Notes: generated by a model not told the origin, from the letters alone. A stretch of 64,000 bases of DNA from Candidatus Tepidifontimicrobium thermophilum (GCA_031459915.1 JAVKHO010000004.1:32001-96000); one strand, 5' to 3'. Counted from the stretch's first letter, positions 42,193-60,096 are shown. A program made the numbers and translations.

Positions 42193-42585
42193 CTAGTGCC
42201 AGCGGGGATCTCCGGACCACTTGCCCAGCTTTGTGAGACAGGCCCGCGTGAACCCCCACTCCACCGCCCGCTCGTAGGTGGGCCGCTCCACCGCCGAAAT
42301 GTTGCCGATCTGCCACACCGTCTTCCAGGGGAGCAGGCCGAAGTGCTGGAACACCATGGCCACCTCGGGTCGCGGACCGCGGACCTGCTCGCCGTCCACC
42401 CACACCCTCCCTTCGTCCGGGGGCACCAGGCCCGCGAGGATCCGTAGCAGGGTGGTCTTCCCGCACCCGCTGGGCCCGATCACGCAGAGGAACTCGTTGG
42501 GCTGCACCTGCACCGAGCACGGCCCCAGCGCGCTGACGTCACCGAAACGCTTGGTCACACCCTCCACGACCATCTTCGCGGTCAT
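42193..42585 (-). pseudogene. Truncated NitT/TauT ABC ATPase fused to an unrelated C-terminal tail
   Basis: Walker A GPSGCGKTT and Q-loop VFQHFGLLPWKTV are present. Signature, Walker B and H-loop are absent, and there is no permease nearby. Confidence 0.75.
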
Positions 42586-43667
42586 CCCGCGCCTCCGGAG
42601 CTCGCCCCCAGCTGCTCGGCCATCCAGTCCGCCACCAGGGGCCGGTACTTGTAGGGGATGTTGTTGCACACGTGGTTGCCCTCGGGGTACAGCACGAACT
42701 CCCCCCGGGGCGCCTCCCGCGCTACCCGCTCCGCGTCCTGCCAGGGGAACAGGGCGTCCTGCTGCCCGAACACCACCAACAGCGGCTGCTGCAGCCTCGG
42801 CAGCACCGGCCCCAGGTCCAGCTCCAGGGCCCGACGCCGTGCCTCCGAGTCGTCAGCCGCGCCCGCGTGGTACCGGAACGTCTCCCTCGTCAGGACCGGC
42901 AGCCGCTCCCACGCGGCCCCGAAGTTGTAGGGCCCTCCGATGGCGGCCACCGCCCGGATCCGCGGCTCAAACGCCGCGGCCCGGGGCGCGTAGTAGCCGC
43001 CCAGGCTGACCCCCACCGCCCCCACCCGGTCCAGGTCCAGGTCGAAGTTTGCCGACAGGTGGTCCAGCACCGCCCGCACCGCCGCCTCGTAGTCGGGCCG
43101 GATGCGGGTGTGGAAACCCGTCTCACCCTGGCCAGGGCCGTCCACGGATACCGTGGCCATCCCCCGCACCAGGAAGGTGTTCTCCCAGTGGAAGAACTCC
43201 TCTTTGGTGGAGTCCAGGCCCGGGATCAGCAGCACCACAGGCGGCCGCTGGCGGCCCTGGGGCCTGCGCAGGTTCGCGAACAGCATCGTGTCCTCGAAGG
43301 GGATCTCCAGACGGCGCGCGGTAGCGTCGAGGTGTCTGTGGGCCGCCCGGAGGGCCTCCACGGACCGCACCGTGGTCTCCCGGTACCGCTGAGGATCCAC
43401 CGTCCACACGAACTTCGCGAAGTGGTAGCACAAGGCCGCCCGCACCCACGCCTCGCCCGCGGTGATCCGCCGTCCCCGGGCCTCCGCCTCGCGGGCCAGC
43501 TCCGCGTGGACGTCTCCGGTCCGCACCCACGCCTCCAGCCACTCCTCCCAGCGCGTGATGGAAGCGGTCGCGCGGACGAAGTCGTTGTAGTCCACCCCCT
43601 GGGCGATCATCCGTGGGGCCCAGTTCTGCACCACCGCCTGAACCCTCGTGTCCCCCCGCCCGCTCAC
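42582..43667 (-). CDS. Alpha/beta hydrolase (2,6-dihydroxypseudooxynicotine hydrolase-like / FrsA-like)
   Basis: PGLDSTKEE, DGPGQGE, GVSLGGYYA nucleophile elbow, G..D, GNHVC. Confidence 0.85.
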   Translation of the reverse strand: MSGRGDTRVQAVVQNWAPRMIAQGVDYNDFVRATASITRWEEWLEAWVRTGDVHAELAREAEARGRRITAGEAWVRAALCYHFAKFVWTVDPQRYRETTVRSVEALRAAHRHLDATARRLEIPFEDTMLFANLRRPQGRQRPPVVLLIPGLDSTKEEFFHWENTFLVRGMATVSVDGPGQGETGFHTRIRPDYEAAVRAVLDHLSANFDLDLDRVGAVGVSLGGYYAPRAAAFEPRIRAVAAIGGPYNFGAAWERLPVLTRETFRYHAGAADDSEARRRALELDLGPVLPRLQQPLLVVFGQQDALFPWQDAERVAREAPRGEFVLYPEGNHVCNNIPYKYRPLVADWMAEQLGASSGGAG

Positions 43668-44653
43668 GTCCGCACCTCCAGGCCCAGGGCCCGGGCCGCG
43701 TTGTCCCGCAAGACCCTGGCTTCCGCCTCCTCCCCCAGCTCTGCCCGGCGGACGAACTCCACCGGCTGCGCCAGTCCCATGTCGAAGGGGTAGTCGGACC
43801 CCAACACCACCTGCTCCGAGCCCACCCACTCCACCAGCTGCCTCAGCAGCACGGGGTCGTGGGTGACGGTGTCGTAGTAGAAGCGCCGCAGGCACACTTC
43901 CACGTCCTCCCGCAGTCTCGCCCGCGCCTTGGGTTGGAAGGTGTGGGCGTGGCGCAACCGGCCCCGCAGGGCGGGCAGAGCACCACCCCCGTGGGCCAGG
44001 ATGACCACAAGCCGCGGATGACGCTCCAGCACCCCGCTCATCACCAGGTGCCCGGCGGTCATGGCGGTCTCCACGGGGTTGCCGACCGTGTTCCACAGGT
44101 AGTACTCGTGCAGTTCGGGGATCCCGAACCCTCGGGTGGTGGGGTGCACGAACACGCCGAGTTTCAAGGCTTCTGCAGCCTCCCATACGGGCTCGAACGC
44201 ATCCTCCCCCAATAACCGGCCTCCGACCCTGGCGGTGACCTCCACGCCCACCAGCCCCGGCCGGCCCCGCACGTCCTCCAGCAACCGCGCGGCCTCCTCC
44301 GGAGCCTGGAGGGGGACCGCCCCGAACGCCCACACCCGGCCTGGGCGGCGCGCACAGACCCGGGACAGCCCCTCGTTCCACGCCTTGCAGACCTCCCGGG
44401 CCAGCCCCACGTCCTGCTCCTCGTACGGCAGCATCGAGACCCAGGGCGAGAGGATCACGGCGTCCACGCCTACCCGGTCCAAGTCCTCCAGGGTCGCCTC
44501 GGGGTCCGCCAGCGCCCCCACCGCGGAGAGAACCCGCTGCCCGCGCCACTCCACGACGTCGCGGTCGCCCTCCCGGACCCGCCGCGCCCGCCAGTCCCCT
44601 TCGCCCACCAGCTCGGGGACGACGACGTGGCAGTGGACGTCGACCGCGTTCAC
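43664..44653 (-). CDS. Amidohydrolase_2 (ACMSD-like decarboxylase/hydratase)
   Basis: DVHCH, VPLQAP, FVHP, AHGGGA, YYDT, GSDYPFDMG. Confidence 0.9.
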   Translation of the reverse strand: MNAVDVHCHVVVPELVGEGDWRARRVREGDRDVVEWRGQRVLSAVGALADPEATLEDLDRVGVDAVILSPWVSMLPYEEQDVGLAREVCKAWNEGLSRVCARRPGRVWAFGAVPLQAPEEAARLLEDVRGRPGLVGVEVTARVGGRLLGEDAFEPVWEAAEALKLGVFVHPTTRGFGIPELHEYYLWNTVGNPVETAMTAGHLVMSGVLERHPRLVVILAHGGGALPALRGRLRHAHTFQPKARARLREDVEVCLRRFYYDTVTHDPVLLRQLVEWVGSEQVVLGSDYPFDMGLAQPVEFVRRAELGEEAEARVLRDNAARALGLEVRT

Positions 44654-45240
44654 CGGCGACCTGCCACCCCCTTGGTGCCGGGCTTCAACCCCACAGCGGT
44701 GTCCGCCAGCACCTCGCCGTGCCGAATGCCCAGGGTTTTGATCCACCGCTGCTGCCCGAGGGTGAGGGCGACGAAGAAGCCCAGTTCCACGATTTCCGGA
44801 ACGGTGAACTGCTCATAGAGCTTCGCCCACAGGGCGTCGTCCGCGATCTCCGCGTTCCACACGATGGCACTGGTGTACCGCAACGCCACCTTCTCCCGCT
44901 CCGTGAAATGTTCGGACTCCTCAAAGTGCAGCAGCTCCTCGTACTTCTCCTCCGTCAGGCCCTTCCGTCCAGCCTGGACGGATCGCTGGACCCCTCAGTA
45001 CTCGCACTCGATGGACTTCGAGACGTAGACGCGACACAGCTCCTTGATGGAGTGGTCCAGCACCCCCTGCCGGAAGGTGAGCTCCCACGCCTGGCTGAAA
45101 GCCCGGATGACGTTGGGGCTGTGGGCCCGGATGGCCTGGCTTTCCGGCCTCGGGGTGCCCTCCCGCCGGGCGCGCTCCAGATACCCCAGAATCTCCGGGT
45201 CCTTTACGGTGTCAGGGTCTACGTACGGAATCCTCGGCAT
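44650..45240 (-). CDS. AhpD/carboxymuconolactone-decarboxylase-like protein, probable selenoprotein (C79-E-Y-U82)
   Basis: ORFs 44995-45240 and 44650-44889 share a frame and are separated only by TGA at 44995-44997. Read-through gives ...IKELCRVYVSKSIECEY(U)GVQRS...FTEREKVAL...FTVPEIVEL. Confidence 0.85.
44958..44994 (-). promoter_or_regulatory. Bacterial SECIS-like hairpin
   Basis: UGA-GG-GGUCC-AGCGA-UCCGUCC-AGGCU-GGACGGA-A-GGGCC: the upper stem starts 12 nt after UGA, the apical loop contains G, and the lower stem is GGUCC/GGGCC. Confidence 0.75.
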
Positions 45241-45254
45241 CCTCCCACCTCCCG

Positions 45255-46430
45255 CTATCCCACACGGCGCAAGCCCCGGGGATACCCGTGCACAGGCTCT
45301 ACGCCGTCCTCCCTCAGCACCACCAGCTCCCCGGTCTGCACGCCGGCTCGGGCGTCCGGGGTCACCACGTTGGGCTGGATCACCAGGGCCATGCCGGGCC
45401 GCAGGATCAGCTCCGCGTCCTGCGGGTTGTCGAATCCCTCAGGCCCCAGCACAGGCGGCAGGTAGCCGCCTCCGTACCCGTGCACGAGGTCGTCATACAC
45501 CGTGAACCCTGCCCGTCGGATCCCCTCCAGCACCCGCAGGAGTTCCCCCGCGCGGATCCCCGGCCGCAGGACGCGCAGCGCGTGCTCAAACGCCTCCTCC
45601 GCCACCCGGTGCAGCTCGCGAAACAGGGGCGTCGGCTCTGCCCCCACCACAAACGTTCGCAGGAGCTGCCCCGCATAGCCCCAGAAGGCCGCGCTGATCT
45701 CACACACCACCACGTCCCCTACCCGCACCCGGCGGCCGGAGGGGTACTGCGCGGGGACGCACCGGTCAGGATCGGTCATGGAAGTGACGGAGAGGAAGTG
45801 GATGTGGGTGCTTCCGCCCAACGGCACGTACGCCCGCTCCACGACGTCCACCAGCTCGAACTCGCTCACCCCGGGGCGGAGGGCTGCCTCCAGGGCCCGT
45901 ACCGCGCGGTCGGTGAGCTCGGCCCCCGCCCGCAACCACGCGAGCTCCTCCTCCGACTTCACCAGCCGCAACGACACGTAGGAGGGGGTCAGGTCCACCA
46001 CCTGCCGCACGCGCGTGGCCAGGGGATGCCACGCAGAACCGGGCAGGGGTCCCACCACACCCACCCGCTGCTGTTCACCCCCTCGCCGGACCAGCTCCTC
46101 GGCCACGGTTCGGGCGGTTGCTGGCCCTGCCCAGACCACCTGGACGTCCGAGGCCACGGCGCGCCGGGCCGTAGGCACGTGGTTCCGGTACTGGACGAAC
46201 AGCTTCACGGCCTCCCCGGGGGCCCACACCACCGCTGCCTCCCGCGTCACCGGCCATCCGGTGAACCACTGGACGGCGTCGCCGCTGCCCGCATTCCCGT
46301 ACAGCACGAGCCGGTCCACCCCGCTCCGCTCCACCAGTTGCGCCAGCTGCGCCCGACGGCGGCGCACCTCGTCGTCGGAGAAAAGCGGGTAGCCATCCTC
46401 TGCCCACACTGCCCGCCAGGAGGACCCCAT
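45255..46430 (-). CDS. M24 (creatinase/aminopeptidase-P fold) hydrolase with non-canonical ligands
   Basis: LRLVKSEEE, LRPG, GYAGQLLRTF, VHGYG, LRPGM..VIQPN. Confidence 0.82.
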   Translation of the reverse strand: MGSSWRAVWAEDGYPLFSDDEVRRRRAQLAQLVERSGVDRLVLYGNAGSGDAVQWFTGWPVTREAAVVWAPGEAVKLFVQYRNHVPTARRAVASDVQVVWAGPATARTVAEELVRRGGEQQRVGVVGPLPGSAWHPLATRVRQVVDLTPSYVSLRLVKSEEELAWLRAGAELTDRAVRALEAALRPGVSEFELVDVVERAYVPLGGSTHIHFLSVTSMTDPDRCVPAQYPSGRRVRVGDVVVCEISAAFWGYAGQLLRTFVVGAEPTPLFRELHRVAEEAFEHALRVLRPGIRAGELLRVLEGIRRAGFTVYDDLVHGYGGGYLPPVLGPEGFDNPQDAELILRPGMALVIQPNVVTPDARAGVQTGELVVLREDGVEPVHGYPRGLRRVG

Positions 46431-46432
46431 CC

Positions 46433-47875
46433 CTAGCCGTCCGCGGGATTGAGCACCACGATCCGCAGGTCCGTCATCTCCTCGATGGCGTATCGGGGTC
46501 CCTCCCGGCCGATCCCGCTCCGCCGGATCCCACCGTAGGGCATAAGGTCCACGCGGAACCCCGACGTGTCGTTGACGATCACCCCGCCCATGCGGAGAGT
46601 CCGGGCCGCCTTCATGGCACGGTCCAGGTTCCGGGTGAACACCCCCGCCTGCAACCCGTACTCCGTGTCGTTGGCCTGCCGCAGGGCCTCCTCGAAGCTC
46701 GAGCAGGCCACCACGGACGCCACGGGCCCGAACACCTCCTGGCAGACCACCTTCATCTCCGGCCGCACGTCGGTCAGCACCGTGGCCGGGTAGAGGACCC
46801 CCTGCCGCGGCCCGCCCAGCGCGCGCCGGGCGCCTCCCTGCACCGCTTCCTCCACCCAGGCCTCCACGCGCCGCGCGTCGTCCTCAGAGATCAGGGGCCC
46901 GATGTCCGTGTCGGGATCCTCGGGGTCGCCCAGCTTCATGGCCCGCGCGGCCGCCACGAACTTCTCGAGAAACGGCTCGTAGGCCGGCTCCTCCACGTAG
47001 ATGCGCTGCACGGAGATGCAGAACTGACCCGCGTAGAGATACGCGAACCGGGCCAGCAGCTGCGCCGCCTGGTCCAGGTTCGCGTCCTGGGCGACGATGT
47101 TCGGGGAGTTGTTCCCCAGCTCCAGGATCACCCGCCGCAGGCCTGTGGCGGCCTTGATGCGCTCCCCCACCTCGGGGCTGCCGGTGAAGGTGTACAGGGC
47201 GATCCCGGGGTGACGCAGCAGGGCCTCGCCCACGGTCCGCCCGCCGCCGACGACCACGTTGAGGTACCCCGGGGGAAGCCCGGCCTCTTCCAGGAGCTGG
47301 GCCAGCATCAGGCTCGTGAGGGGCGTGTAGGTGGCCGGTTTCAGGACGACGGCGTTCCCTGCGGCCAGGGCGGGCCCCACCTTGTGCGCCACCAGGTTCA
47401 GGGGGAAGTTGAAGGGGGAGATGGCGCACACCACACCTACTGGAACCCGGAGGGTGAAAGCCAGGCGTCCTTCGCCGCCCGGGGCGGCTTCCACGGGCAC
47501 CTGCTCCCCGTGGATCCGCTTGGCCTCCTCCCCGCTGAGGGAAATGGTCTGGAGCGCGCGGTCCACTTCCACCCGTGCGTACTTCAGGGGTTTGCCGGCC
47601 TCCCGGGCGATGGTCAGCGCGAACTCCTCGCGCCGCTGGCTCAACAGGTCCGCGGCGCGGCGCAGGATCTCGAACCGTCGGTACGGGGAAAGCGGACGCT
47701 CCTCCAGGGCCCGCTGCGCCGCCTGCACCGCCTCGTCCACGAGGGCCTCGTCCGCCTCCACCACCTCCGCCAGGACCTCCTGCCGGTACTTGTGCAGCAC
47801 CGGCACGGTACGCGGGCCGTCGCGCCACCTGCCGTCGATGTACAAGCCCCATCGGGGTACTGTCACCGTGGCCAC
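46433..47875 (-). CDS. NAD(P)-dependent aldehyde dehydrogenase
   Basis: PFNFP, LKPA, FTGS, LELG, GQFCIS, EVFGP. Confidence 0.95.
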   Translation of the reverse strand: MATVTVPRWGLYIDGRWRDGPRTVPVLHKYRQEVLAEVVEADEALVDEAVQAAQRALEERPLSPYRRFEILRRAADLLSQRREEFALTIAREAGKPLKYARVEVDRALQTISLSGEEAKRIHGEQVPVEAAPGGEGRLAFTLRVPVGVVCAISPFNFPLNLVAHKVGPALAAGNAVVLKPATYTPLTSLMLAQLLEEAGLPPGYLNVVVGGGRTVGEALLRHPGIALYTFTGSPEVGERIKAATGLRRVILELGNNSPNIVAQDANLDQAAQLLARFAYLYAGQFCISVQRIYVEEPAYEPFLEKFVAAARAMKLGDPEDPDTDIGPLISEDDARRVEAWVEEAVQGGARRALGGPRQGVLYPATVLTDVRPEMKVVCQEVFGPVASVVACSSFEEALRQANDTEYGLQAGVFTRNLDRAMKAARTLRMGGVIVNDTSGFRVDLMPYGGIRRSGIGREGPRYAIEEMTDLRIVVLNPADG

Positions 47876-47882
47876 GTCCTCC

Positions 47883-48920
47883 TCACCTCCCCTCGGCTCC
47901 CTCTCCCTCACCTTCCCGGACGTAGATCCGGGGTGCCGAAGCGTTCACCCGGAGCTGGAAGACGTCCGGCCGGTTGTAGTGGCCCGCGAAGTCGTGGCGG
48001 ACCTTCTCTGCCACGCACTCGTTCAGGTCCGCCTGGAACACCAGGACGCCCTCCTCCGCGCCCATGGGGCCCGCCACCACAGATCCGCCCGGGCCCACAA
48101 TGTTGGAGCCTCCCGTGCTGCGGTCGTCCCACAGGATCGCCCGGTCCTCCTCCGTGTACACCAGCAGCTCCCGCATCTCGTCCGTCAGGGTCCCGCACGC
48201 GTTCACCACGAACGCTTTGGTGGCGAGTGCCAGGGCCCGGCCCACCACGAGGGCCCGTTCCGGGCACGACATTCCCCGTTTCGGGAACCGGTTCGGCCAG
48301 CTGACGGCCAGCACGTGCGGGTACTCGGCCATGAGGGCGAACACCGCCAGCGGGTTGGAGCTCTCCCCACAGATCAACCCGCCCACGCGGCCGAAGTCCG
48401 TGGGGAAGGTCCTCAGGGTGTCCCCGAACCCGCCGGTGTGCACCAGACGCTCCCCCACGGTGGGGACGAGCTTCCGGTGCTTGCCGAGGAGCGTCCCGTC
48501 GGGGGCGATGAACAGCTGCGTGTTGTACAGGGTCCCGAACGTGCCCGGCCGACGCTCGCACAGGCCCATGATCACGTACACCCCGGCCTCCCGGGCGGAC
48601 TCGCACAGGGCCTCGGTGGTCCGGCTGGGAATCTCCACGGAGTTCAGGAACAGCCGTGTGGCCAGCTCGCCGCTCCTGGGGTCGGTGGCGGGGTAGAAGT
48701 GGTACCACAAGGGATGGCCCGGGATGAACCCCTCGGGGAAAACCACGAGCTTCGCGCCCCGGCGCCCGGCTTCCAGGATCCACTCGCAGGCACGCTCCGT
48801 GGTGCGCTCGCGGTTCAGGAACACCGGAGCTGCCTGCACCGCGGCCAGCTTCACCCGCGGGAGGCGGTCACCACCCCCCGGCTCGGCCTCCACCACGCTC
48901 TCCAGCTCCACCAGACGCAT
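47883..48920 (-). CDS. Nitrilase / carbon-nitrogen hydrolase
   Basis: FPE, HRKLVPT, LICGE (E-K-C triad), DFAGHYNRPDVF. Confidence 0.92.
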   Translation of the reverse strand: MRLVELESVVEAEPGGGDRLPRVKLAAVQAAPVFLNRERTTERACEWILEAGRRGAKLVVFPEGFIPGHPLWYHFYPATDPRSGELATRLFLNSVEIPSRTTEALCESAREAGVYVIMGLCERRPGTFGTLYNTQLFIAPDGTLLGKHRKLVPTVGERLVHTGGFGDTLRTFPTDFGRVGGLICGESSNPLAVFALMAEYPHVLAVSWPNRFPKRGMSCPERALVVGRALALATKAFVVNACGTLTDEMRELLVYTEEDRAILWDDRSTGGSNIVGPGGSVVAGPMGAEEGVLVFQADLNECVAEKVRHDFAGHYNRPDVFQLRVNASAPRIYVREGEGEGAEGR

Positions 48921-48933
48921 CTCCGCCTCCCGT

Positions 48934-49647
48934 TCACGGTTGCTCCCCGCTCAAACCGACCACCACCCGTCCGAGTCCTGCAAGCTCGAACTCCACGGAT
49001 CGGTCCGCAGGGTCCAGGGACAGGGGAGGGATCACGGACCCGCAGATGACCAAGTCTCCGGCCCGCAGACGCTCCCCCACGGAGGCCAGCACCCGCGCCA
49101 TCTCCCCCAGCACGTCCACCACCCGCCCCGGAAAAGCCTCCAGGTCTTCCACCCCCGCGGACTCCCCGCCGTTGCGGAACACCCGTCCCACCGTGCCCGC
49201 CAGGCTGCCCGTGAAGGGCACGGTCCGCATGTCCCCGACGACCGCGTATCGGTGGAAGATGTTTCCGGCCAGCACCGCCTCCAGGTCCTCCTCGGGTGCG
49301 CGGTCTGGGTCGACCAGCTCGATGGCGGGCGCCACCCCGGTCACCGCGGCGGCCACCGCCTCCGGCGAGCTGTCGGGCAGCACGTCCTGTCCCAGCCGCA
49401 CCGCCACCTCCGGTTCTGCCACCGGCCGGCGCCACCCTCGCACGGACACGGTAACACCGGAGGGCAGCACCGTCCGGTCGGTGAGGAAGCCCGCCAGAAG
49501 GTGGGGAAGCCCGAGTCGCTGCTTCGCCTGCGAAGAACCGAAGGCGGCTTTCCAGCCCAAAGGCCTTGCCCCCGACCCCACCAGCTCCCGCCTCTTTTCC
49601 AGCAGCCGCTGGAGGCCGCTGCGCACCGCGGGATGGACCTCCGTCAC
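48934..49647 (-). CDS. 2-keto-4-pentenoate hydratase-like protein (FAH superfamily)
   Basis: GWK, EPEVA, PAIELVD, LRAGDLVICGS. Confidence 0.8.
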   Translation of the reverse strand: MTEVHPAVRSGLQRLLEKRRELVGSGARPLGWKAAFGSSQAKQRLGLPHLLAGFLTDRTVLPSGVTVSVRGWRRPVAEPEVAVRLGQDVLPDSSPEAVAAAVTGVAPAIELVDPDRAPEEDLEAVLAGNIFHRYAVVGDMRTVPFTGSLAGTVGRVFRNGGESAGVEDLEAFPGRVVDVLGEMARVLASVGERLRAGDLVICGSVIPPLSLDPADRSVEFELAGLGRVVVGLSGEQP

Positions 49648-49660
49648 CTTGCACCTCCGG

Positions 49661-50062
49661 CTAGGTCCGCTCCGGAGCCACCTCGTAACCCGAGGCCTCC
49701 AGGGAGCCCGCTCCGATCCAGCCCCAGACCAGCACCGCGTCCTCTGGGCCGGTGTTCACGAAGCCGTGCCAGCCGCCGCGGGGGATGTACACCACGTCCC
49801 CTTCTGCGGCGGGCTCGCGGCCCGCGTCGGTGTAGATCTCGCCCCGCCCCTTCAGCACCACGAAGAACTCGTCGCAGTTGCGGTGCAGGTGCCGTTCGTG
49901 CCGGGCGCCCGGCCGGAACACCGTCCAGCCCAGGGTGAAGTCCTTCGCCCCCGCGGTCGCCTCGTCCACCAGGAACCGCACCACCATGTCCACCCAGCCA
50001 TCCTCCCGCGCCAGGCCTCCGCGCGGCGCCACCTTCTCCACGTGGGTCCGGTACAGCTTCAC
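49661..50062 (-). CDS. Cupin-domain protein
   Basis: HERHLH.NCDEFF, GDVVYIPRG.WH. Confidence 0.85.
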   Translation of the reverse strand: MKLYRTHVEKVAPRGGLAREDGWVDMVVRFLVDEATAGAKDFTLGWTVFRPGARHERHLHRNCDEFFVVLKGRGEIYTDAGREPAAEGDVVYIPRGGWHGFVNTGPEDAVLVWGWIGAGSLEASGYEVAPERT

Positions 50063-50946
50063 GCTCCTCCACCTCCCAGCTTGCGGTAGACCCGGTGCGT
50101 GGCCACGAAGTCCAGGCGGTCGAGCCCCAGGCCCCGGCAGGCGTTCATCATCTCGTTGGCCGCCGCGGCCAGGGGCACCGGGCTGCCCAGCCTGCGCGCC
50201 AGGTCCAGGACCAGCAGCATGTCCTTCTGCTGCAGGTTCACGTCCGCCAGCGGGGTCTCCGGCATCTTCCCCTCCAGGATGAAGGGGCCACGGTAGGCCA
50301 GCACCGGGGAGGCCGCCACGCTGTTCAGGATCGCCTCCACCGCCACCGCGCGGTCCACCCCGGCCTTCTCCGCCAGCGCCACTGCCTCGCCGAAGGCGAT
50401 GACCTCCACCATGAGCAGCAGGTTCACGGCCAGCTTCATGGCGCACGCCGTACCGTTGGGCCCCACGTAGAGCACCCTGGGGCCGATGGCGAGGAGCACG
50501 GGCCGGACCCGCTCGTACACCCGCGGGTCCCCGCCCACCATCAAGGACGCCTTTCCGTCCCGTACCGTGGGCGGCGCCCCGGAGATGGGGGCGTCGAGCA
50601 TGAACCGGCCTGCCCTGTGGAATTCCTCGGCCACGGCGCGGCTCGTGTCGGGGTCGATGGTGCTCATGTCCACGTAGACGCCTCCCGGCGGCAGCCCGTG
50701 CAGGACGCCTTTCGGTCCGAGGGCTACCTCCCGCACCGCCTGGCCGTCGGTCACGATGCTGAACACCACCTCGCTCTGCTCCGCCACCGCGCGGGGACTG
50801 CTGGCCCACCGCATGCCCGCCTCCACCAGGGGCTGGGCTTTTGACTGCGTGCGGTTCCAGCCCACCACGGAGTAACCTGCCTGCAGCAGGCGCGGCACGA
50901 TCACCGCCCCCATGGCCCCCAGTCCGACAAACCCTACGCGCTCCAT
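50059..50946 (-). CDS. Beta-hydroxyacid dehydrogenase (3-hydroxyisobutyrate/tartronate-semialdehyde family)
   Basis: GFVGLGAMG, DMSTI, DAPISG, MKLAVN, QKD. Confidence 0.92.
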   Translation of the reverse strand: MERVGFVGLGAMGAVIVPRLLQAGYSVVGWNRTQSKAQPLVEAGMRWASSPRAVAEQSEVVFSIVTDGQAVREVALGPKGVLHGLPPGGVYVDMSTIDPDTSRAVAEEFHRAGRFMLDAPISGAPPTVRDGKASLMVGGDPRVYERVRPVLLAIGPRVLYVGPNGTACAMKLAVNLLLMVEVIAFGEAVALAEKAGVDRAVAVEAILNSVAASPVLAYRGPFILEGKMPETPLADVNLQQKDMLLVLDLARRLGSPVPLAAAANEMMNACRGLGLDRLDFVATHRVYRKLGGGGA

Positions 50947-50969: not shown

Positions 50970-52133
50970 TCAGCGCCCGAAGTCCAAAAGGGCCAGCGGC
51001 TCCTCCACCCACGCCGCCAGGGTTTCCAGGAAACGGGCCGCCCGGGCGCCGTCCAGGACCCGGTGGTCGCACGCGAGCCCCAGGCTCAAAGTCGGGCGCA
51101 CCACGGGCCGGCCCTCCTCCGCCACCACCCGGTCTGCCAGCCGTCCCACGCTGAGGATGGCCGCCTGCGGCGCGTTCACCACGGCCAGGAACCGGTCCAC
51201 CCCGTACATGCCGAGGTTCGAGATCGTGAACGTCCCGCCGTCCACGTCCTCCGGGCGCAGCCGGCCCGCACGGGCACGGTCCACGAGCTCCGCGCGGCGC
51301 TGCGCGATCCGCTCCACAGGTAGCTCGTCGGCGCGATGCACCACGGGCACCACCAGCCCGTGTTCCGTGGCCACCGCGATCCCCACGTTGACGTCCGGGA
51401 GACGCCGGATCCGGCCGTCCTCCCAGCGCGCGTTGACCTCCGGGTGAGCTCGCAGCGCCGTGGCTACCAGCTTCACCAACAGGTCGGTGTAAGTCAGCTC
51501 GACCTGCAGGCGCTGCCGCAGGGCCTGGTGCCAGGCCACGAGCCGGTCCGCCCGTACGTCCCGCTGGAGGAAGAAGTGGGGGACGGTGCTCCAGGCCCGC
51601 GCGGTGCGCTCCGCCATGAGCTTCCACACGTGCGGGAGCTCGGAGGCGGGGGCGGCCTCAGTCAGCCGCTGTAAGTCCGAGGCGAGGATGGCGCCCCCGG
51701 GGCCCGATCCCTGGACCGACCGCAGGTCCACTCCCATCTCTCGGGCGAGCCGGCGGGCTTTGGGAGAGGCCCGGGGCCTCACGGGTGCCGGCTCCGCCAC
51801 CGTCGGCGGCCCGAGGACCTCCTCCGTGGACACGGCTGCAGCCGCCGCTGCGGGCGCACTCACCGGCGCGGCCGGCAGCTCGGAGGGTTCCTCCCCGGGG
51901 AGGAGGATCCAGCCGATCACCTGGCCCACGGGGACTTCGTCTCCCTCGCGAGCCAGCACCCGCGCCAGGACGCCGGAGGCGGGGGACTCGATCTCCACGT
52001 TGGCCTTGTCGGTCTCCACCTCCAGCAGCGGCTCGCCCTGCCGGACTTCCTCGCCCTCCGAGCGCCACCACCGCAGGACTTTGCCCGTTTCCTGGGCCAT
52101 GCCCAGGGCGGGCATGATCACCTCCCTCGGCAC
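50970..52133 (-). CDS. Dihydrolipoamide acyltransferase (E2)
   Basis: Lipoyl motif ETDKA; ASPKARRLA..GSGPGG; TISNLG; DHRVLDG. Confidence 0.93.
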   Translation of the reverse strand: MPREVIMPALGMAQETGKVLRWWRSEGEEVRQGEPLLEVETDKANVEIESPASGVLARVLAREGDEVPVGQVIGWILLPGEEPSELPAAPVSAPAAAAAAVSTEEVLGPPTVAEPAPVRPRASPKARRLAREMGVDLRSVQGSGPGGAILASDLQRLTEAAPASELPHVWKLMAERTARAWSTVPHFFLQRDVRADRLVAWHQALRQRLQVELTYTDLLVKLVATALRAHPEVNARWEDGRIRRLPDVNVGIAVATEHGLVVPVVHRADELPVERIAQRRAELVDRARAGRLRPEDVDGGTFTISNLGMYGVDRFLAVVNAPQAAILSVGRLADRVVAEEGRPVVRPTLSLGLACDHRVLDGARAARFLETLAAWVEEPLALLDFGR

Positions 52134-52143
52134 CGCTCCCTCC

Positions 52144-53481
52144 TCAGGGACGTATGCCTTCTACCGCCGCGGACGCCACCACCGCCTCCAGGGGCGGGGT
52201 CGTGCGGTTCAGCTGCGACTGCACCTCCCGGGTGGTGGGAAGCGGCCCGTCCACGGTCCAGTACCGGGTGCCCGCCACCAGCAGCGTCTCCGCCGGGAAG
52301 CGGGTGATCACCTCGCAGCCGTCCTTGGTCACCACCAGCTGCTCCTCGATGCGGGCCGCGGACCACCCGTCCCGGGCCGGCCAGAAGGTCTCCAGGGCGA
52401 ATACCATCCCCTCCTCGATGACCTCCGGGTGGTCGAAGGACACCAGGCGGCTGAAGATGGGTTTCTCCCAGATCGAGAGCCCTACCCCGTGGCCGTACTG
52501 AAGGGCGAAGGCGGCTTCCTCGTTGGCAAACCCGAACTCCTCCGCCCTGGGCCACACCTTCACCACGTCCGCGGTGGTCACCCCCGGCCTGATGAGGCTG
52601 ATGGCCGCGTCCAGGTAGTCCCGGCAGCGCTTGTAGGCGTCCACCATGGCCGGGGAGGCGCTCCCCACCACGAAGGTGCGGTAGTAACAGGTCCGGTAGC
52701 CGTTGAAGCTGTGGAGGATGTCAAAGTACACGGGGTCCCCGGGCCGCAGCACGCGGTCCGTGTACACGTGCGGGTGCGGATTGCACCGCTCCCCGCTGAT
52801 GGCGTTGACGCCCTCCACGTGCTCGGAGCCCAGGTCGTAGAGGATCTTGGCCACCAGCCCCACGCACTCGTTCTCCCGTACGCCCGGGCGCAGGAACTTG
52901 TACAGTTCCTCGTACGCCGCGTCCACCATCATGCAGGCGGTCGCCAGCAGGGTGATCTCGTCCTGGGTCTTGATCTTGCGGGCCTCCTGCATGAGGGGCT
53001 GGCCGTCCACCACCCGCAACCCCTCCTCCTGCAGGGCGAACAGCACGGGCGGCTCCACCACGTCCACGCCCACGGGTTCCCGGTGCAGCCCGCGGGCCTC
53101 CAGCTCCACCCGGATCTTGCGGGCCACGTCCCTGGCCCGCTCGGGGTAGGCGCCCCGGAGGGTGGAGATCCCCGCCCTCGACCGCTCGCCCAGCCACGGG
53201 CAGTACAGCTGGTGGTGGCGCGCCGCGGAGCCGAAGTCCCACAGGAGAGGCTCGTCGTCCTGCGGCAGCAGGCAGAAGCGCACCAGCTTGTCCATGGCCC
53301 AGGTGCCGATGTGGGTGGCGGTGATGTACCGGATGTTGTTCATGTCGAAACACAGCAGGGAGCCCAGCTCGGACTGCTTCAGCAGCCCCTTGACCCGTGC
53401 CAGCCGCTCCCGGCGCAGGCGCTCGTAATCCACTCGCGCCTCCCAGTCCACCCCCATGAGGCCGTACGTCTTGATTCCCAT
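52144..53481 (-). CDS. M24 (Xaa-Pro peptidase/creatinase fold) hydrolase
   Basis: ARKIKT.DEI, FDI...GYRTCYYRTF, GHGVG, ALET, RIEE. Confidence 0.85.
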   Translation of the reverse strand: MGIKTYGLMGVDWEARVDYERLRRERLARVKGLLKQSELGSLLCFDMNNIRYITATHIGTWAMDKLVRFCLLPQDDEPLLWDFGSAARHHQLYCPWLGERSRAGISTLRGAYPERARDVARKIRVELEARGLHREPVGVDVVEPPVLFALQEEGLRVVDGQPLMQEARKIKTQDEITLLATACMMVDAAYEELYKFLRPGVRENECVGLVAKILYDLGSEHVEGVNAISGERCNPHPHVYTDRVLRPGDPVYFDILHSFNGYRTCYYRTFVVGSASPAMVDAYKRCRDYLDAAISLIRPGVTTADVVKVWPRAEEFGFANEEAAFALQYGHGVGLSIWEKPIFSRLVSFDHPEVIEEGMVFALETFWPARDGWSAARIEEQLVVTKDGCEVITRFPAETLLVAGTRYWTVDGPLPTTREVQSQLNRTTPPLEAVVASAAVEGIRP

Positions 53482-53508
53482 CGCCCGCACCTCCTTTCCA
53501 CGCCCGGC

Positions 53509-54534
53509 CTAGTTCCGGCCACAGAGCTCCCGCGCCACCGACGCCACCTGCTCCGGGGTGGGCACCGTCTGGTCCTCCAGGACCGGCGAGAACGGGACCG
53601 GCACGTCCAGGGCCCCGACCCGGCGCACAGGGGCCTCCAGGTCGTAAAAGGCCTCCTCCGCGATGGTCGCCGCCAGCTCCGCGGTGACCCCGTACCGGCG
53701 GTGCCCCTCGTCCACCACCACCACCCTTCCCGTCTTCCGCGCGCTCCGCACCAGGGTCTCCACGTCCAGGGGGAAGATCGTACGGGGGTCCACCACCTCT
53801 GCGGAGATCCCGTCCTGCTCCAGCAGCTCGGCGGCCTCCAGGGCCACGTACACCATGCTGCTGGTGGCCACCAGGGTGACGTCCCGCCCCGGCCGCTTCA
53901 CGTCCGCCACCCCGAAGGGGATGGTGTACTCCTCCTCCGGGACCGGACCCTTGACCTGGTACATCATCTTGTCCTCGAAGAACAGCACCGGGTTGTCGTC
54001 ACGGATGGCGGTCTTCAGCAGGCCCTTGGCGTCGTAAGGGGTGGAGGGGACCGCTACCTTCAAACCCGGGATGTGGGCGAACCAGGCGTGCAGGCTCTGG
54101 CTGTGTTGCGCCGCGGAACGCCGGGTGGCCCCCAGGGTGGTTCGGATCACCAGCGGGACTTTCAGCTTGCCGCCGGACATGTAGTGCACCTTGGCCGCCT
54201 GGTTCACGATCTGGTCCATAGCCAGGGTCAGGAAGTCCCCGAACATGATGTCCACCACGGGGCGCATGCCGGTCATGGCGGCACCGACCGCGATCCCCAC
54301 GAAGCCCGCCTCGGAGATGGGGGTATCGATCACCCGCTGCGGCCCGAACTCGTCCACGAGTCCTGAAAGGACCTTAAAGGGGGTGCCGGCTTCTGCCACG
54401 TCCTCGCCCAGGAGGAACACCCGGGGGTCCCGGCGCATCTCCTCGGCCAACGCCTCTCGGATCGCCTGGGCCAGGGTGATCTCCCGGACCGTACCGACTG
54501 CGGGCCCGCGCGCCGCCGCGCTAGGCGTAGACAT
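53509..54534 (-). CDS. TPP-dependent 2-oxoacid/acetoin dehydrogenase E1 beta
   Basis: GEDV, DTPISE, AQHSQS, DAKGLL. Confidence 0.93.
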   Translation of the reverse strand: MSTPSAAARGPAVGTVREITLAQAIREALAEEMRRDPRVFLLGEDVAEAGTPFKVLSGLVDEFGPQRVIDTPISEAGFVGIAVGAAMTGMRPVVDIMFGDFLTLAMDQIVNQAAKVHYMSGGKLKVPLVIRTTLGATRRSAAQHSQSLHAWFAHIPGLKVAVPSTPYDAKGLLKTAIRDDNPVLFFEDKMMYQVKGPVPEEEYTIPFGVADVKRPGRDVTLVATSSMVYVALEAAELLEQDGISAEVVDPRTIFPLDVETLVRSARKTGRVVVVDEGHRRYGVTAELAATIAEEAFYDLEAPVRRVGALDVPVPFSPVLEDQTVPTPEQVASVARELCGRN

Positions 54535-55534
54535 GCTGCGTCACCTCGCTGGGGTCCGGGTAGGGCGCTTGCAGGGCGTAGGCCACGCCCTGGGCCACCT
54601 CCTCCCGGGCTGCGCGTTCTGCGGCTTCGAACTCCTCCGGGGACGCTAGCCCGGCTGCGGTCATCCAGCCCCTCAGCAGCTTCAGGGGGTCGCGTTGCGC
54701 CTTCCAGGTCTCCTCCTCCTCCCGGCTCCGGTAGTAGGAGCGGTCCACGTCGCCCACGTGATGCCCGAAGTACCGGTAGGTGTTGCACAGGAGGAAGCTG
54801 GGGCCGTCCCCCCGACGCGCCCGGGCCACCGCGCGCCGCGCCGCCGCCAGCACCTGGCGCACGTCCTGTCCGTCCACTTCCTCCGCGGGGATGCCGAACG
54901 CCCGCGGCCGCGCTAGGATGTCCCCCGCGGTGGTCTCCCGGTAGTGGGTGTACTCGTTGTACAGGTTGTTCTCGCAGACGTACACCACGGGCAGCTTCCA
55001 CAGGGAGGCCATGTTCATGACCTCGTACAGCAACCCCTGACCCAGGGCTCCTTCCCCGAAGAAGCACACCGACACCTGGTCCGTGCCGCGCAGCTTCGCC
55101 GACAGGGCCGCCCCCGTGGCGATGCCCGCGCTCCCGCCCACGATGGCGTTGGCGCCCAGGTTGCCGGACTCTGGGTCTGCGATGTGCATGGACCCGCCCT
55201 TCCCCCGGCAGTACCCCTCCGCCTTGCCCAACAGCTCGCAGAACATGCGGTCCACCCGGGCGCCCTTGGCCAGGCAGTGGCCGTGGCCGCGGTGGGTGCT
55301 GGTGATGGTGTCCTCAGGACGCAGGGCCTCACACACCCCCACCGCTACGGCTTCCTCACCGATGTACAGGTGCGCCAGCCCGGGCATCCGCCGGCTCAGG
55401 TACAGCTCGTTGACCTGCTCCTCGAAGGCCCGGATGGTGGCCATCAGTCGGTACATCCGCAGCCAGTCCACGGCGGAGAGGTCCTGGACCTCTTCGGGCA
55501 GCTCCGCTTGGTTCACGGTGACCGGTGTGTGCAT
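54521..55534 (-). CDS. TPP-dependent 2-oxoacid/acetoin dehydrogenase E1 alpha
   Basis: THRGHGH, GKGGSMH, GEGA...ENN TPP motif, TYRYFGH. Confidence 0.93.
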   Translation of the reverse strand: MHTPVTVNQAELPEEVQDLSAVDWLRMYRLMATIRAFEEQVNELYLSRRMPGLAHLYIGEEAVAVGVCEALRPEDTITSTHRGHGHCLAKGARVDRMFCELLGKAEGYCRGKGGSMHIADPESGNLGANAIVGGSAGIATGAALSAKLRGTDQVSVCFFGEGALGQGLLYEVMNMASLWKLPVVYVCENNLYNEYTHYRETTAGDILARPRAFGIPAEEVDGQDVRQVLAAARRAVARARRGDGPSFLLCNTYRYFGHHVGDVDRSYYRSREEEETWKAQRDPLKLLRGWMTAAGLASPEEFEAAERAAREEVAQGVAYALQAPYPDPSEVTQHVYA

Positions 55535-55546
55535 CCCTTCCCCTCC

Positions 55547-56437
55547 TCACCGGAGCTCTGGGTCACGGCCTGCCAGCCGAGAGAGCACCTCGAACAGCAC
55601 CGCGAAGTCGTAGCCCGCCAGCCCGAGCCCGCGGGCCGCGGTCAGGTACTCGTTGGTGGTGGCGGTGGTGGGCAGGGGGACGTTGAGCTCCCGGCCCATC
55701 TCCAGCGCCAGCAGGAGGTCCTTCTGCATCATGTTGACGTCGAACCACGCCTCCTCCGGCATCCGCAGCACGAAGGGACCTCGGTACTTCAGCATGGGCG
55801 AGGCGGCGACGCTGTTCAGCAGCACGTGCACCGCGGTCTCCCGGGGAATCCCGCCGCGCTCGGCCAACAGCAGCCCCTCGCTGAAGGCCAGCATCTGCAC
55901 CGCGAGGCTCAGGTTCGTGGCCACCTTCATGAGCACCGCCTGGCCGTTGCCGCCCACGTGGGTCACCACGGGCCCGATGTCCTGCAGGATAGGGCGGACG
56001 CGCTCGAAGGCGTCGCGGTCTCCGCCCACCATGATGGACAGGCGCCCCTCCTCCAGGGTCACCACGCTGCCCGACACCGGAGCGTCCAGCATCTGCGCAC
56101 CCCGCTGGCGGACCCGCTCCGCCAGGGCCCGGCTGGCCGCGGGGCTCACGGTGCTCATGTCCACGTACACCTTGCCCGGGCCCAGCCCCGCCAGGATCCC
56201 GTCCGGCCCCTCCGTGACCGCCTGCAGGGCCTTCGTGTCGGTGACCATGGAGAACACCACGTCCGCGGCCTCCGCCACCTGTCGGGGGCTTCCGGCCCAC
56301 TCCATCCCGAGATCCACCAGCCACTGGGCCTTGGCCCGGGTCCGGTTGTAGCCCACCACGCGCCGGCCCGCGTCCAGCAGGCGTTTCACCATACGGCTGC
56401 CCATGACCCCCAGGCCCACGAACCCGATCCTGTCCAA
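55547..56437 (-). CDS. Beta-hydroxyacid dehydrogenase (second paralog)
   Basis: GFVGLGVMG, DMST, DAPVSG, MKVATN, QKD. Confidence 0.92.
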   Translation of the reverse strand: MDRIGFVGLGVMGSRMVKRLLDAGRRVVGYNRTRAKAQWLVDLGMEWAGSPRQVAEAADVVFSMVTDTKALQAVTEGPDGILAGLGPGKVYVDMSTVSPAASRALAERVRQRGAQMLDAPVSGSVVTLEEGRLSIMVGGDRDAFERVRPILQDIGPVVTHVGGNGQAVLMKVATNLSLAVQMLAFSEGLLLAERGGIPRETAVHVLLNSVAASPMLKYRGPFVLRMPEEAWFDVNMMQKDLLLALEMGRELNVPLPTTATTNEYLTAARGLGLAGYDFAVLFEVLSRLAGRDPELR

Positions 56438-56440
56438 GTC

Positions 56441-57163
56441 TCACCCTCCTCCCGTGCGGCCGTCGCTGCCGTCGGTGTGCAGGACCCTGCGGATGTCCTC
56501 GTGAACCCGCCCCAGGTGCTCCGCCATGCGCAGCCGCGCTGCGCCCGGATCCCCCGCCCGCACCGCCTCCAGGATCGACCGGTGCTGCGCCAGGGACTTC
56601 TGGGGACTTCCGGGGATGTAGTAGACGCTGGCCAGCGCCCGGTGAAGGGGATCCCGGATGGCCCGCATCACGTATACCGCCACCCGGTTGCGGGTCGCCT
56701 CGGCCACCGTGAGGTGGAACCGCAGGTCCGCCTCGATGTAGTGCGTCTGCGAACTCAAGCCCGCTTCCATCTGGCGGATGGCCTCCTCCATCCGGAGGAG
56801 GTGGCCGTCCGTGCGGCGGGCCGCCGCCAGGGCCGCGAACTCCGTCTCCAGCACCTTCCGGATCTCGTACAGCTCCTCCAGGTCGAAGGCCTCCAAGGTG
56901 AGCAGGAAACGGACCGAGTCCACCAGGGCGTTGCCGTACTCCGCCACCACGAAGGAGCCGTGCCCCGCGGACCGGATCACGCCCTTGGACTCCAGCAGCC
57001 GTAGCGCCTCCCGCACGGAGGACCGCCCGACCCCGTACCGCCGGGCCAGCTCGTGCTCCGGAGGGAGGCTGTCGCCCGGGCTCAGACGGCGCTGGCGGAT
57101 CTGGTGCAGCAGGCGTTCCGCCACCAGCTGGTATACCTTCGGGCGCTGGACGGGCTCGTACAC
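56441..57163 (-). CDS. FadR/GntR-family regulator
   Basis: PEHELARRYGVGRSSVREAL; DLRFH; HRSIL. Confidence 0.92.
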   Translation of the reverse strand: MYEPVQRPKVYQLVAERLLHQIRQRRLSPGDSLPPEHELARRYGVGRSSVREALRLLESKGVIRSAGHGSFVVAEYGNALVDSVRFLLTLEAFDLEELYEIRKVLETEFAALAAARRTDGHLLRMEEAIRQMEAGLSSQTHYIEADLRFHLTVAEATRNRVAVYVMRAIRDPLHRALASVYYIPGSPQKSLAQHRSILEAVRAGDPGAARLRMAEHLGRVHEDIRRVLHTDGSDGRTGGG

Positions 57164-57164
57164 G

Positions 57165-59063: not shown

Positions 59064-59069
59064 CCGGGA

Positions 59070-60071
59070 TTAGCGGGCCCGGATGGACTCCGGGATGTCC
59101 AACCCGACCGACCGCCAGTGGGCTTCCGCACCGGGGTGCAGCGGGATGCTCACCCCGAGGAGCGCCCGGCGGCTGGTCATGTCCGCCGAGGCGCCGTGGA
59201 CCTGCAACATGTGCGCGTGGCCCTCTCGGCTGTAGGCGGCGGCCACCAGCCGTCGTACCAGGTCTGCGGGCACGTCCTTGTGGACGAACCACAGACCCGG
59301 CAGCCCGACCGTGGTAACGGAGTCGGTGAGGCCGTTGTAGCCGCGGGCCGGTACCACGTACCGGGTGAAGTACGGGTACTTACGGAAGAAGTCGGTCCGG
59401 GAAAGCGGCCCGTACAGGTCCAGGAGCTGGACTTCCTTGGCGATGGCGGCCTCGATGGTGGCCCGGTCCGGGTAGGGGCCGGTGTAGTAGAAGGCCTCCA
59501 CGCGCCCGTCCCGCAGGGCTCCGGCGGCCGCAGAGCCAAGCAGGGGAACCCGCTGGATGCGGTCCCACAGGCCGAGCTCGCCAAAGATCCGCTGGGCGTT
59601 GCTGAACGTTCCAGAGCCGGGAGAGCCCACGGCCACCCGCTTACCGGCCAGGTCTGCCACCGCGCGGATGCCGCTGTCCCTGTACGTCACCAGGTGCCCC
59701 ACTCCCACGAACAACAGGCCGACGGCCCGGATGTTCCGCTGGGGACTGCCCTGGAAGGCCTCTACCCCGAAGTACCCCTCGTGGACGTCGCTGGCGAAGG
59801 CCACGGCCATCTCCGCGTCCCCGGCGTTCACGCGGCGCACGTTCTCCACGGAGCCGCCGGTGGCCGCCACGCTCACCTCCACCCCGGGCACGTTGCGGGA
59901 CAGGAATGTGGCCAGGCCAGTGGCGAACACGTTGAAGATCCCTGCAGCAGGGCCCCCGAGGATGGTGACCCGGGCCGTGGCGGGCCCGGCGAGGGCCCCA
60001 CCGGACGAGGAGGCCACCAGCATCAGCACACACGTCAAGCCCAGGACCCTGGCCCAGCTCCACCGCCGCAT
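59070..60071 (-). CDS. TAXI-family TRAP solute receptor
   Basis: Signal peptide; TGGSVENV, DLAGKRV..GSGT, PLHPGA. Confidence 0.93.
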   Translation of the reverse strand: MRRWSWARVLGLTCVLMLVASSSGGALAGPATARVTILGGPAAGIFNVFATGLATFLSRNVPGVEVSVAATGGSVENVRRVNAGDAEMAVAFASDVHEGYFGVEAFQGSPQRNIRAVGLLFVGVGHLVTYRDSGIRAVADLAGKRVAVGSPGSGTFSNAQRIFGELGLWDRIQRVPLLGSAAAGALRDGRVEAFYYTGPYPDRATIEAAIAKEVQLLDLYGPLSRTDFFRKYPYFTRYVVPARGYNGLTDSVTTVGLPGLWFVHKDVPADLVRRLVAAAYSREGHAHMLQVHGASADMTSRRALLGVSIPLHPGAEAHWRSVGLDIPESIRAR

Positions 60072-60096
60072 AGGACGTCCCCCCTTCTCCACCGGT

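Follow-up and report, generated by a model that had tools for sequence, protein, structure and literature searches.

The locus analysed here raises two questions: whether two short open reading frames that are separated only by a TGA triplet are in reality a single selenoprotein gene, and what such a selenoprotein would do inside a catabolic gene cluster. The window, which is the whole stretch of DNA that was analysed, comprises 64,000 nucleotides of Candidatus Tepidifontimicrobium thermophilum (GCA_031459915.1, JAVKHO010000004.1:32001-96000), and its features are listed in Table 1. On the minus strand, from 45240 to 44650, the frame is uninterrupted except for the TGA at 44997-44995, directly after Cys-Glu-Tyr, and read-through results in a protein of 196 amino acids, the final TGA of which overlaps with the GTG start of the next gene. 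A standard gene caller yields two pieces (44995-45240, 81 aa, and 44650-44889, 79 aa), and 12 of 150 database representatives are fragments that end at CxY, in line with the earlier note, which had joined both pieces into one AhpD/CMD gene and had expected gene callers to split or miss it. The PF02627 domain matches residues 42-123 and spans the UGA (E 5.8e-7; 29.8 bits vs a cut-off of 23), and the structural model of the read-through protein (pLDDT 88.9) has AhpD-like proteins as its top Foldseek matches, with TM scores of 0.6-0.74 to AhpD-like chains.

Table 1. Features of the selenoprotein gene and the surrounding cluster, with positions counted from the first nucleotide of the window.
Feature	Position	Strand	Basis
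AhpD/CMD-fold gene, 196 codons, in-frame UGA82	44650..45240	minus	translation, PF02627, model, Foldseek
Purine-rich, ribosome-binding-like stretch between upstream stop and ATG (putative function)	45241..45253	minus	sequence
Glu67 (relay Glu, PA0269 Glu36) and extra invariant Cys69	45034..45042	minus	each in 119/120 homologs
Cys79, first residue of CxxU	45004..45006	minus	119/120 homologs; alignment with PA0269 Cys48
UGA82, putative selenocysteine, second Cys position of the AhpD CxxC	44995..44997	minus	TGA/TGC loci; alignment with PA0269 Cys51
Arg86, invariant, at the AhpD relay His position (PA0269 His55)	44983..44985	minus	119/120 homologs, gap-free alignment
SECIS-like upper stem-loop (6 bp conserved; loop of 5 nt with G as its second nucleotide, 19 nt away from the UGA)	44965..44981	minus	pairing, synonymous sites
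Lower, variable SECIS stem (44992-44988 with 44962-44958)	44958..44992	minus	RNAfold
Alpha/beta hydrolase, nearest to 2,6-dihydroxy-pseudo-oxynicotine hydrolase	42582..43640 (start approximate)	minus	PDB 2jbw, E 3.5e-49
ACMSD-like amidohydrolase-2, downstream neighbour, start overlaps selenoprotein stop	43664..44653	minus	PF04909; human ACMSD best solved relative, E 6e-42
M24/creatinase-like hydrolase (M24b), upstream neighbour	45255..46430	minus	PF00557, PF01321
Aldehyde dehydrogenase, nitrilase-family, FAA-hydrolase-family and cupin genes	46433..50065	minus	Pfam; NCBIfam below cut-offs
Lipoyl-bearing E2 (lipoyl, E3-binding and acyltransferase domains), candidate electron donor	50970..52133	minus	PF00364, PF02817, PF00198
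Core of the recurring module: M24a, E1 beta, E1 alpha, HIBADH-like dehydrogenase	52144..56437	minus	
GntR-like regulator and TRAP/TAXI-like transporter, cluster head	56441..60092	minus	named from translations

At position 82, the best 120 of 5,030 protein homologs have Cys in 108 cases, Trp in 11, and a gap in one. On the DNA level, codon 82 is TGA in all 80 nearest loci, which come from several phyla and are the best 80 of 215 related genome loci (72-95% identity, the remaining 135 lying outside the count), and it is TGA in 78 of 78 loci when the unpublished genomes L030 and L033 are left out; as the query used for the ranking carried Cys at this codon, the ranking gave TGA no advantage. A Cys-type query found 65 loci, 59 of which could be mapped at the codon, all with TGC, including 49 close family members (TGC in 49/49). 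The family is present in 15 of 401 Actinomycetota genomes, with six matches having TGA and 11 having TGC or TGT. No TGG occurs at codon 82 in any mapped DNA locus, be it among the 80 TGA loci, the Cys-type loci, or the actinobacterial set, and TGA ends 14 of the 23 correctly placed cluster genes and is the commonest stop of the host, which is why a recoding to Trp is rejected. The Trp-bearing proteins all derive from one source and their hairpin-coded peptide is identical to that of the TGA genes, and, judged from the proteins rather than from their DNA, they are likely TGA genes that were translated under another code by the gene caller. In assembled contigs from four runs of four studies, the codon has TGA as its single reading, and one RNA-library contig that spans the codon does not differ; these are contigs and not raw reads, and some of them may be the source of the window DNA. 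A crude count of pN/pS (median of 80 pairs) gives about 0.17 downstream of the UGA vs 0.11 upstream, by which measure the sequence after codon 82 is under purifying selection. Cys and TGA forms are interleaved in a weakly supported tree from a quick search, and several switches between Sec and Cys, in either direction, are possible within the family.

The UGA is followed, 12 nt further on, by a hairpin with the stem UCCGUCC/GGACGGA and the loop AGGCU, to which a lower stem GGUCC/GGGCC is added, and RNAfold recovers both stems. The stability alone was discarded as evidence, as it is not clearly beyond chance in GC-rich DNA: the z-score against shuffled sequences is -1.77, 12 of 200 shuffles fold equally well, and 194 of the 39,072 open-flanked TGA triplets in the host genome pass a similar filter for a 6-bp stem. 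The evidential weight of the hairpin is its conservation. Its inner six base pairs are formed in all 80 TGA genes (6-7 of 7 pairs), whereas the 49 Cys genes have a mean of 2.6 of 7 pairs, and synonymous diversity at codons 87-92 is only 0-0.6 bits, while 57 comparable codons average 1.52 bits, the lowest value outside the stem being 0.34. In 37 sequences picked for diversity, all stem cells are paired, two of the six pairs show double changes, and sliding the stem partner drops pairing to 18-50%, values that do not amount to a probability, as the sequences are related. Of the 80 relatives, 41 lack the outermost U-A pair, and the lower stem varies and is not conserved in register, so that of the hairpin described in the earlier note both stems exist, but only the inner six pairs are also conserved. 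Three more distant TGA genes (L173, L178, L180) have different stems at identical spacing. The bSECIS criteria in the accessible text of PMC13188914 include a loop of 3-9 nt, an upper stem of 4-16 bp, a G in the first two loop positions, a distance of 16-37 nt from the UGA, and a minimum free energy of at most -7.5, and the hairpin agrees with all of them (5-nt loop, 6-7 bp, G at position 2, 19 nt, -20.7 kcal/mol). At window position 44960, a strain from a sludge metagenome (run X9) has a variant that, on the coding strand, changes a lower-stem G-U to A-U and Gly94 to Asp, which is a single observation.

The host genome encodes selA, selB, a well-formed tRNA-Sec (selC) and selD together on contig C16, and the host selD itself carries an in-frame TGA and a hairpin. 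A second tRNA-SeC reported by ARAGORN (G000:C5:39873-39964) has mismatched acceptor and T stems and is likely spurious, in contrast to the properly structured gene on C16. Between selC and an FdhD-like gene on the latter contig (L243:8200-8907; G000:C16), there is an open reading frame of 235 aa with a 66-nt (22-aa) tandem repeat, likely for an ordinary coiled-coil membrane-anchored protein. In a survey of 50 of the genomes behind the 80 TGA loci, 46 had a selB-like match, 44 of them over the cut-off and two of the positives unpublished. SelB over the cut-off was found also in 7 of 9 Cys-type genomes, and its presence alone thus fails to discriminate Sec from Cys genomes. In five genomes with Cys forms (G155, G254, G345, G177, G467), the over-cut-off actinobacterial SelB matches cover only the N-terminal 340-360 model positions.

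Within the genus, G006 has an intact gene together with selA, selB, and selD, and G001 has an intact TGA gene and selD, with an apparent absence of selA and selB that is due to a contig end inside the tRNA-Sec gene. In G004 (95% complete), no selA, over-cut-off selB, or selD was found, and the copy of the gene in that genome (L096/L194, G004:C61:96667-96993) has lost about 140 nt across codons 40-86, including the active site, and carries frameshifts, with the operon otherwise largely intact. In G007 (96% complete), the search found no copy of the gene, no selA or selD, and no full selB. G003 contains the gene and its machinery was not found at a completeness of 72%, which is too low to inform, and G008, G010, and G011 contain selA and the gene was not found. 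In the genus, the gene is thus broken or not found in two sister genomes in which the Sec machinery was not found. The pairing of Cys and TGA, the conservation of the SECIS element, the presence of the machinery, and the gene decay where the machinery was not found strongly support Sec82, as the earlier note had claimed, and it is nearly certain from these comparisons that UGA82 is decoded as selenocysteine, with SelB predicted to bind the stem-loop and to insert Sec.

Concerning the active site, a gap-free alignment matches Glu67, Cys79, Tyr81, Sec82, and Arg86 to Glu36, Cys48, Tyr50, Cys51, and His55 of PA0269, which constitute the relay of that protein (PMC3141380). Arg86 is thereby found in place of a relay His that is termed invariant in the accessible text of PMC3141380. 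Arg86, Gln85, Ser87, and Cys69 are each present in 119/120 homologs, Cys forms included, and Arg86 also in 81 of 87 motif-bearing wider representatives; as the Cys forms carry the Arg too, it is not a compensation for selenium. About 40 positions are invariant, and they extend well beyond the CxxC helix. The protein has the relay Glu of AhpD peroxidases twelve residues before the CxxC (Glu67) and a Tyr/His inside the motif (Tyr81), and with Arg86 it lacks the His four residues after the second Cys, so that peroxidase chemistry cannot be assumed. The Bmp8-type debrominases have a His three residues after the second Cys, and Gln85 is in that column. PcaC-type gamma-carboxymuconolactone decarboxylases are described as being without a CxxC motif (PMC3141380), whereas CxxU is present here and the structural match, found only to 2q0t, is weak. 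What the protein does have is the combination of a PF02627 domain/AhpD fold with CxxU that marks CxxU selenoproteins, at scores far below the cut-offs of the named NCBIfam families (TIGR01926, 23 vs 81.8 bits; NF041047, 16 vs 110; NF053654, 58 vs 310). A second, distant group of TGA-bearing AhpD-like genes (seven loci, L097-L103 of family f4 genomes, such as L098:1495-2010; about 30% identity; CxYU-S-x-V-R-S) has its own conserved hairpin, Arg at position 86, and Met or another residue at position 69; it scores 80 bits to NF053654, which is below the cut-off, and G040 carries both groups. In L197 and L198 (G454:C88, G399:C44), the TGA gene is immediately followed by a second, weaker AhpD-like match, the aligned part of which shows no recognisable CxxC.

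The cluster starts with the TRAP-like transporter and the GntR-like regulator, followed by HIBADH-like dehydrogenases, E1 alpha/beta, M24a, lipoyl-E2, cupins, FAA hydrolase, nitrilase, aldehyde dehydrogenase, M24b, and the selenoprotein, and continues with the ACMSD-like amidohydrolase, the DHPON-like hydrolase, and a xanthine-dehydrogenase-family subunit. None of these genes reaches a specific family cut-off; going by the nearest relatives of the enzymes, the substrate would be an N-heteroaromatic compound. No peroxiredoxin was found among the scanned neighbours, and an E3 is encoded by the host genome. RNA-library contigs cover parts of the cluster, which as contigs cannot show transcription, no matching read turned up in the roughly 3% of one raw-read run that was covered, which does not bear on expression, and a scan of the locus for promoters and terminators was uninformative. 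A short ABC-ATPase-like open reading frame inside the cluster (42193-42585, about 130 aa) looks truncated.

M24a, E1 alpha/beta, and the HIBADH-like dehydrogenase, often together with E2, the DHPON-like hydrolase, and the xanthine-dehydrogenase family, make up a widespread catabolic module (window 34135-60092, minus strand; L187-L194, L202-L241) that is apparently uncharacterised. M24a is 75-85% identical across phyla and is present in 51 of the 401 actinobacterial genomes and in 37 of the 61 genomes from the order of the host, and the catabolic pathway itself may merit more attention than the selenoprotein. Among the 401 sampled actinobacterial genomes, M24a is present in 14 of the 15 with the family vs 37 of the 386 others (three of these 37 unpublished), counts that are inflated by kinship, as related genomes are not independent. 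In the order of the host, M24a is frequent in any case (37 of 61). In six of the 14 genomes with both, family gene and M24a lie within 27 kb, in two they are far apart on one contig, and in six they are on different contigs. Directly behind E1 beta, the gene is found in six loci from two tree branches, in Sec as well as in Cys forms. The module adjoins the Sec gene in Actinomycetota and Chloroflexota (L071, L078, L084) and Cys forms in L138 and L148, and Cys-type orthologs hold the same cluster position (G155, G254, G342, G467, G117, L138, L148). The family thus recurs, in its Sec or Cys form, with the M24/E1/E2/hydrolase module in three phyla.

This association is not obligatory. No family member is present in 37 of the 51 sampled actinobacterial genomes with M24a, and 40 chosen stretches around M24a (26 of them in genomes that lack a close member, 14 in genomes that carry one at another place) contained none, which is not to be taken as a rate. 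Most of the operon persists in G004 and G007, where the gene is broken or was not found. The fetched flanks of the nearest 80 Sec loci contain M24a at >=50% identity in only two cases and E2 only in the same-genus L007, and the immediate neighbours are 156 genes in 88 groups, so that there is no fixed partner gene. Same-strand neighbours in these 80 loci include glyoxalase/VOC (10), 2-hydroxyacid dehydrogenase (8), and amidohydrolase-2 genes (13), and MmgE/PrpD is also frequent; in one Cys lineage, 22 loci have a divergent LysR-like gene (identified by its translation) in front of the family gene, and nine have a cupin gene behind it. The fetched stretches of the linked clusters L189 and L191-L193 contain no E2. 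The idea that the AhpD-like protein substitutes for a missing E2 or E3 was rejected, as many clusters lack both E2 and the gene, and the host has an E3. Since Cys forms occupy the same slot, 37 of 51 genomes with M24a have no family member, the operon of G004 exists with a deleted active site, and most of the 80 nearest Sec genes are outside the module, an obligate selenium-dependent step is unsupported. Of the selenium-dependent step in an undescribed degradation pathway that had been proposed in the earlier note, the link to the catabolic module is real and recurs beyond the genus, but the step is not supported as an obligate one.

What role may then be assigned to the protein? It is very likely an AhpD-fold selenoprotein with a conserved UGA82 that is read via the stem-loop, and its probable function, with redox cycling of Cys79/Sec82, is that of an optional helper in the redox chemistry of the catabolic cluster. 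Several traits of the gene favour this reading: modules exist without it, Cys forms can take its place, its association is with a catabolic module and not with peroxiredoxins, and it is found time and again beside E1/E2. The predicted cycle leads from reduced Cys79/Sec82 to a selenylsulfide and back. By analogy to the positions in the AhpD motif, it is quite likely that Sec82 would be the nucleophile, which Cys79 would resolve, and that Arg86 would stabilise the selenolate or bind an anionic substrate rather than act as a base. The protein may, with a slight preference for this option, reduce an oxidant or an oxidised thiol that arises during the degradation of the N-heteroaromatic-type compound. 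More tentative, and rather doubtful, is the source of the electrons, which might be a dihydrolipoyl-E2 charged by the cluster E1 or the host E3, as in the case of M. tuberculosis AhpD and DlaT; such a lipoyl partner would not be general, because the module is outside the fetched flanks of most nearest Sec loci, with their 88 neighbour groups. Selenium would speed up the enzyme, and the pathway would not require it.

The main rival to such a redox helper is likewise a selenoprotein, but an enzyme of the pathway itself for one feeder substrate, in which Sec82 (or Cys) would act on a carbon or halogen atom of a ring-derived intermediate, for instance by isomerisation or reductive dehalogenation. 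Arg86, Gln85, and further invariant residues would then form the substrate pocket, in the manner of Bmp8, an AhpD-fold debrominase that acts on bromopyrroles. This is unlikely, and what speaks for it is the rewired and highly conserved active site, as seen in the exchange of His for Arg and in invariant positions well beyond the CxxC helix. Also the catabolic same-strand neighbours and the genes flanking the Cys lineage would fit to a pathway enzyme, and Bmp8 is among the closest solved relatives (PDB 6ohi, 6ohj; E 1.3e-10, TM 0.67, 17% identity). In Bmp8, the His three residues after the second Cys is catalytic, and its counterpart in the protein is Gln85, which speaks against such a chemistry, as do the lack of a constant partner enzyme and the persistence of the module where the gene is absent. 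Less likely still is the more far-reaching version, according to which a rewired AhpD-fold selenoenzyme family (CxxU-xx-Gln-Arg plus a third Cys), fed by a dedicated E1/lipoyl-E2, would reduce or isomerise a ring-cleavage intermediate within a widespread, undescribed pathway for N-heteroaromatic degradation in uncultured soil, groundwater, and hot-spring bacteria. If true, this would be selenium chemistry in organic catabolism and not in peroxide defence.

It is improbable that the protein has a general antioxidant function as an AhpD, with a peroxiredoxin from elsewhere in the genome as its substrate, and that its position in the cluster is incidental: the AhpD fold with CxxU, seven AhpC/TSA-family matches elsewhere in the host genome, and the many relatives that are unlinked to the module would be compatible with this, but the relay His is missing, co-occurrence and co-location with the module are non-random in three phyla, the gene is translationally coupled inside the operon here, and the distribution is patchy, with 15 of 401 actinobacterial genomes. 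There is practically no chance that the TGA arose from a sequencing error, marks a decaying gene hit by a nonsense mutation, or stands for Trp under another genetic code, as the Trp in 11 of 120 homologs and the unexceptional stability of the single hairpin are outweighed by the TGA in contigs of four studies and in all 80 relatives, by the purifying selection downstream, and by the absence of TGG from mapped loci.

The optional redox helper remains the preferred reading. For annotation, the analysis mends a gene that appears in pieces in many genomes of Binatia, Rokubacteria, Sysuimicrobiota/CSP1-3, Actinomycetota, Chloroflexota, and Burkholderiales, and no NCBIfam model captures the family defined here. 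The branch offers testable handles, which are natural Sec/Cys pairs, the His-to-Arg site, the lipoyl-E2 as candidate donor, and a candidate pathway. In open-access text, no paper was found on the His-to-Arg branch of AhpD or on the gene cluster of the window, and no relevant paper on selenoproteins in these phyla.

As the earlier note states, AhpD-like selenoproteins have been reported before. CxxU forms are described for the AhpD-like type of COG2128/TIGR01926 ("AhpD-like 1") and for the CMD-domain type of PF02627 ("AhpD-like 2") (PMC1088965, PMC2398784), and they are also listed in PMC13188914 and in BSepDB (PMC13326102), which may already contain the gene of the window. The type is known since 2005, and there is neither a new recoding mechanism nor a new selenoprotein class. 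In the accessible parts of PMC1088965, PMC2398784, and PMC13188914, these proteins, listed for 20 years, are given only a presumed redox role. According to these descriptions, the protein of the window shares with the catalogued families the AhpD/CMD fold, the CxxU with Sec for the second Cys, the existence of Cys homologs, and a SECIS element right behind the UGA, whereas it is far below the NCBIfam cut-offs, with the members compared by description and not by sequence. The best family model is NF053654, "YciW-related (seleno)protein", an AhpD-like family with Sec and Cys forms that matches in full length (residues 1-163); as the protein scores 58 bits against a cut-off of 310 and its Cys homologs 54-69 bits, the family is, judged by these scores, a sister family and not a member of NF053654.

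With PA0269 (2o4d/2ijc) and M. tuberculosis AhpD, as far as their descriptions extend, the protein shares the helical hairpin and the relay residues that match Glu67, Cys79, Tyr81, and Sec82, and it differs from them in the invariant Arg86 vs their His55/His137, in the extra Cys69, and in that no ahpC neighbour was found here. Bmp8 is alike in having an AhpD fold that acts on a small organic substrate and in its CxYC that aligns with CEYU, and is unlike in the His that aligns with Gln85. The debrominase relies on the first Cys, whereas the Sec in the protein of the window replaces the second. In M. tuberculosis, E1/E3, DlaT, AhpD, and AhpC form one system, in which the lipoyl-E2 DlaT reduces AhpD (accessible text of PMC12995895 and PMC12028322). 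An AhpD-fold protein is also encoded alongside E1 and lipoyl-E2 genes here, and directly behind E1 beta in six loci, but the acceptor described for M. tuberculosis is AhpC, and the E2 is not always in the cluster here. What is distinctive in comparison to these systems is the invariant Arg in place of the relay His, the extra invariant Cys, and the recurrence with a catabolic module.
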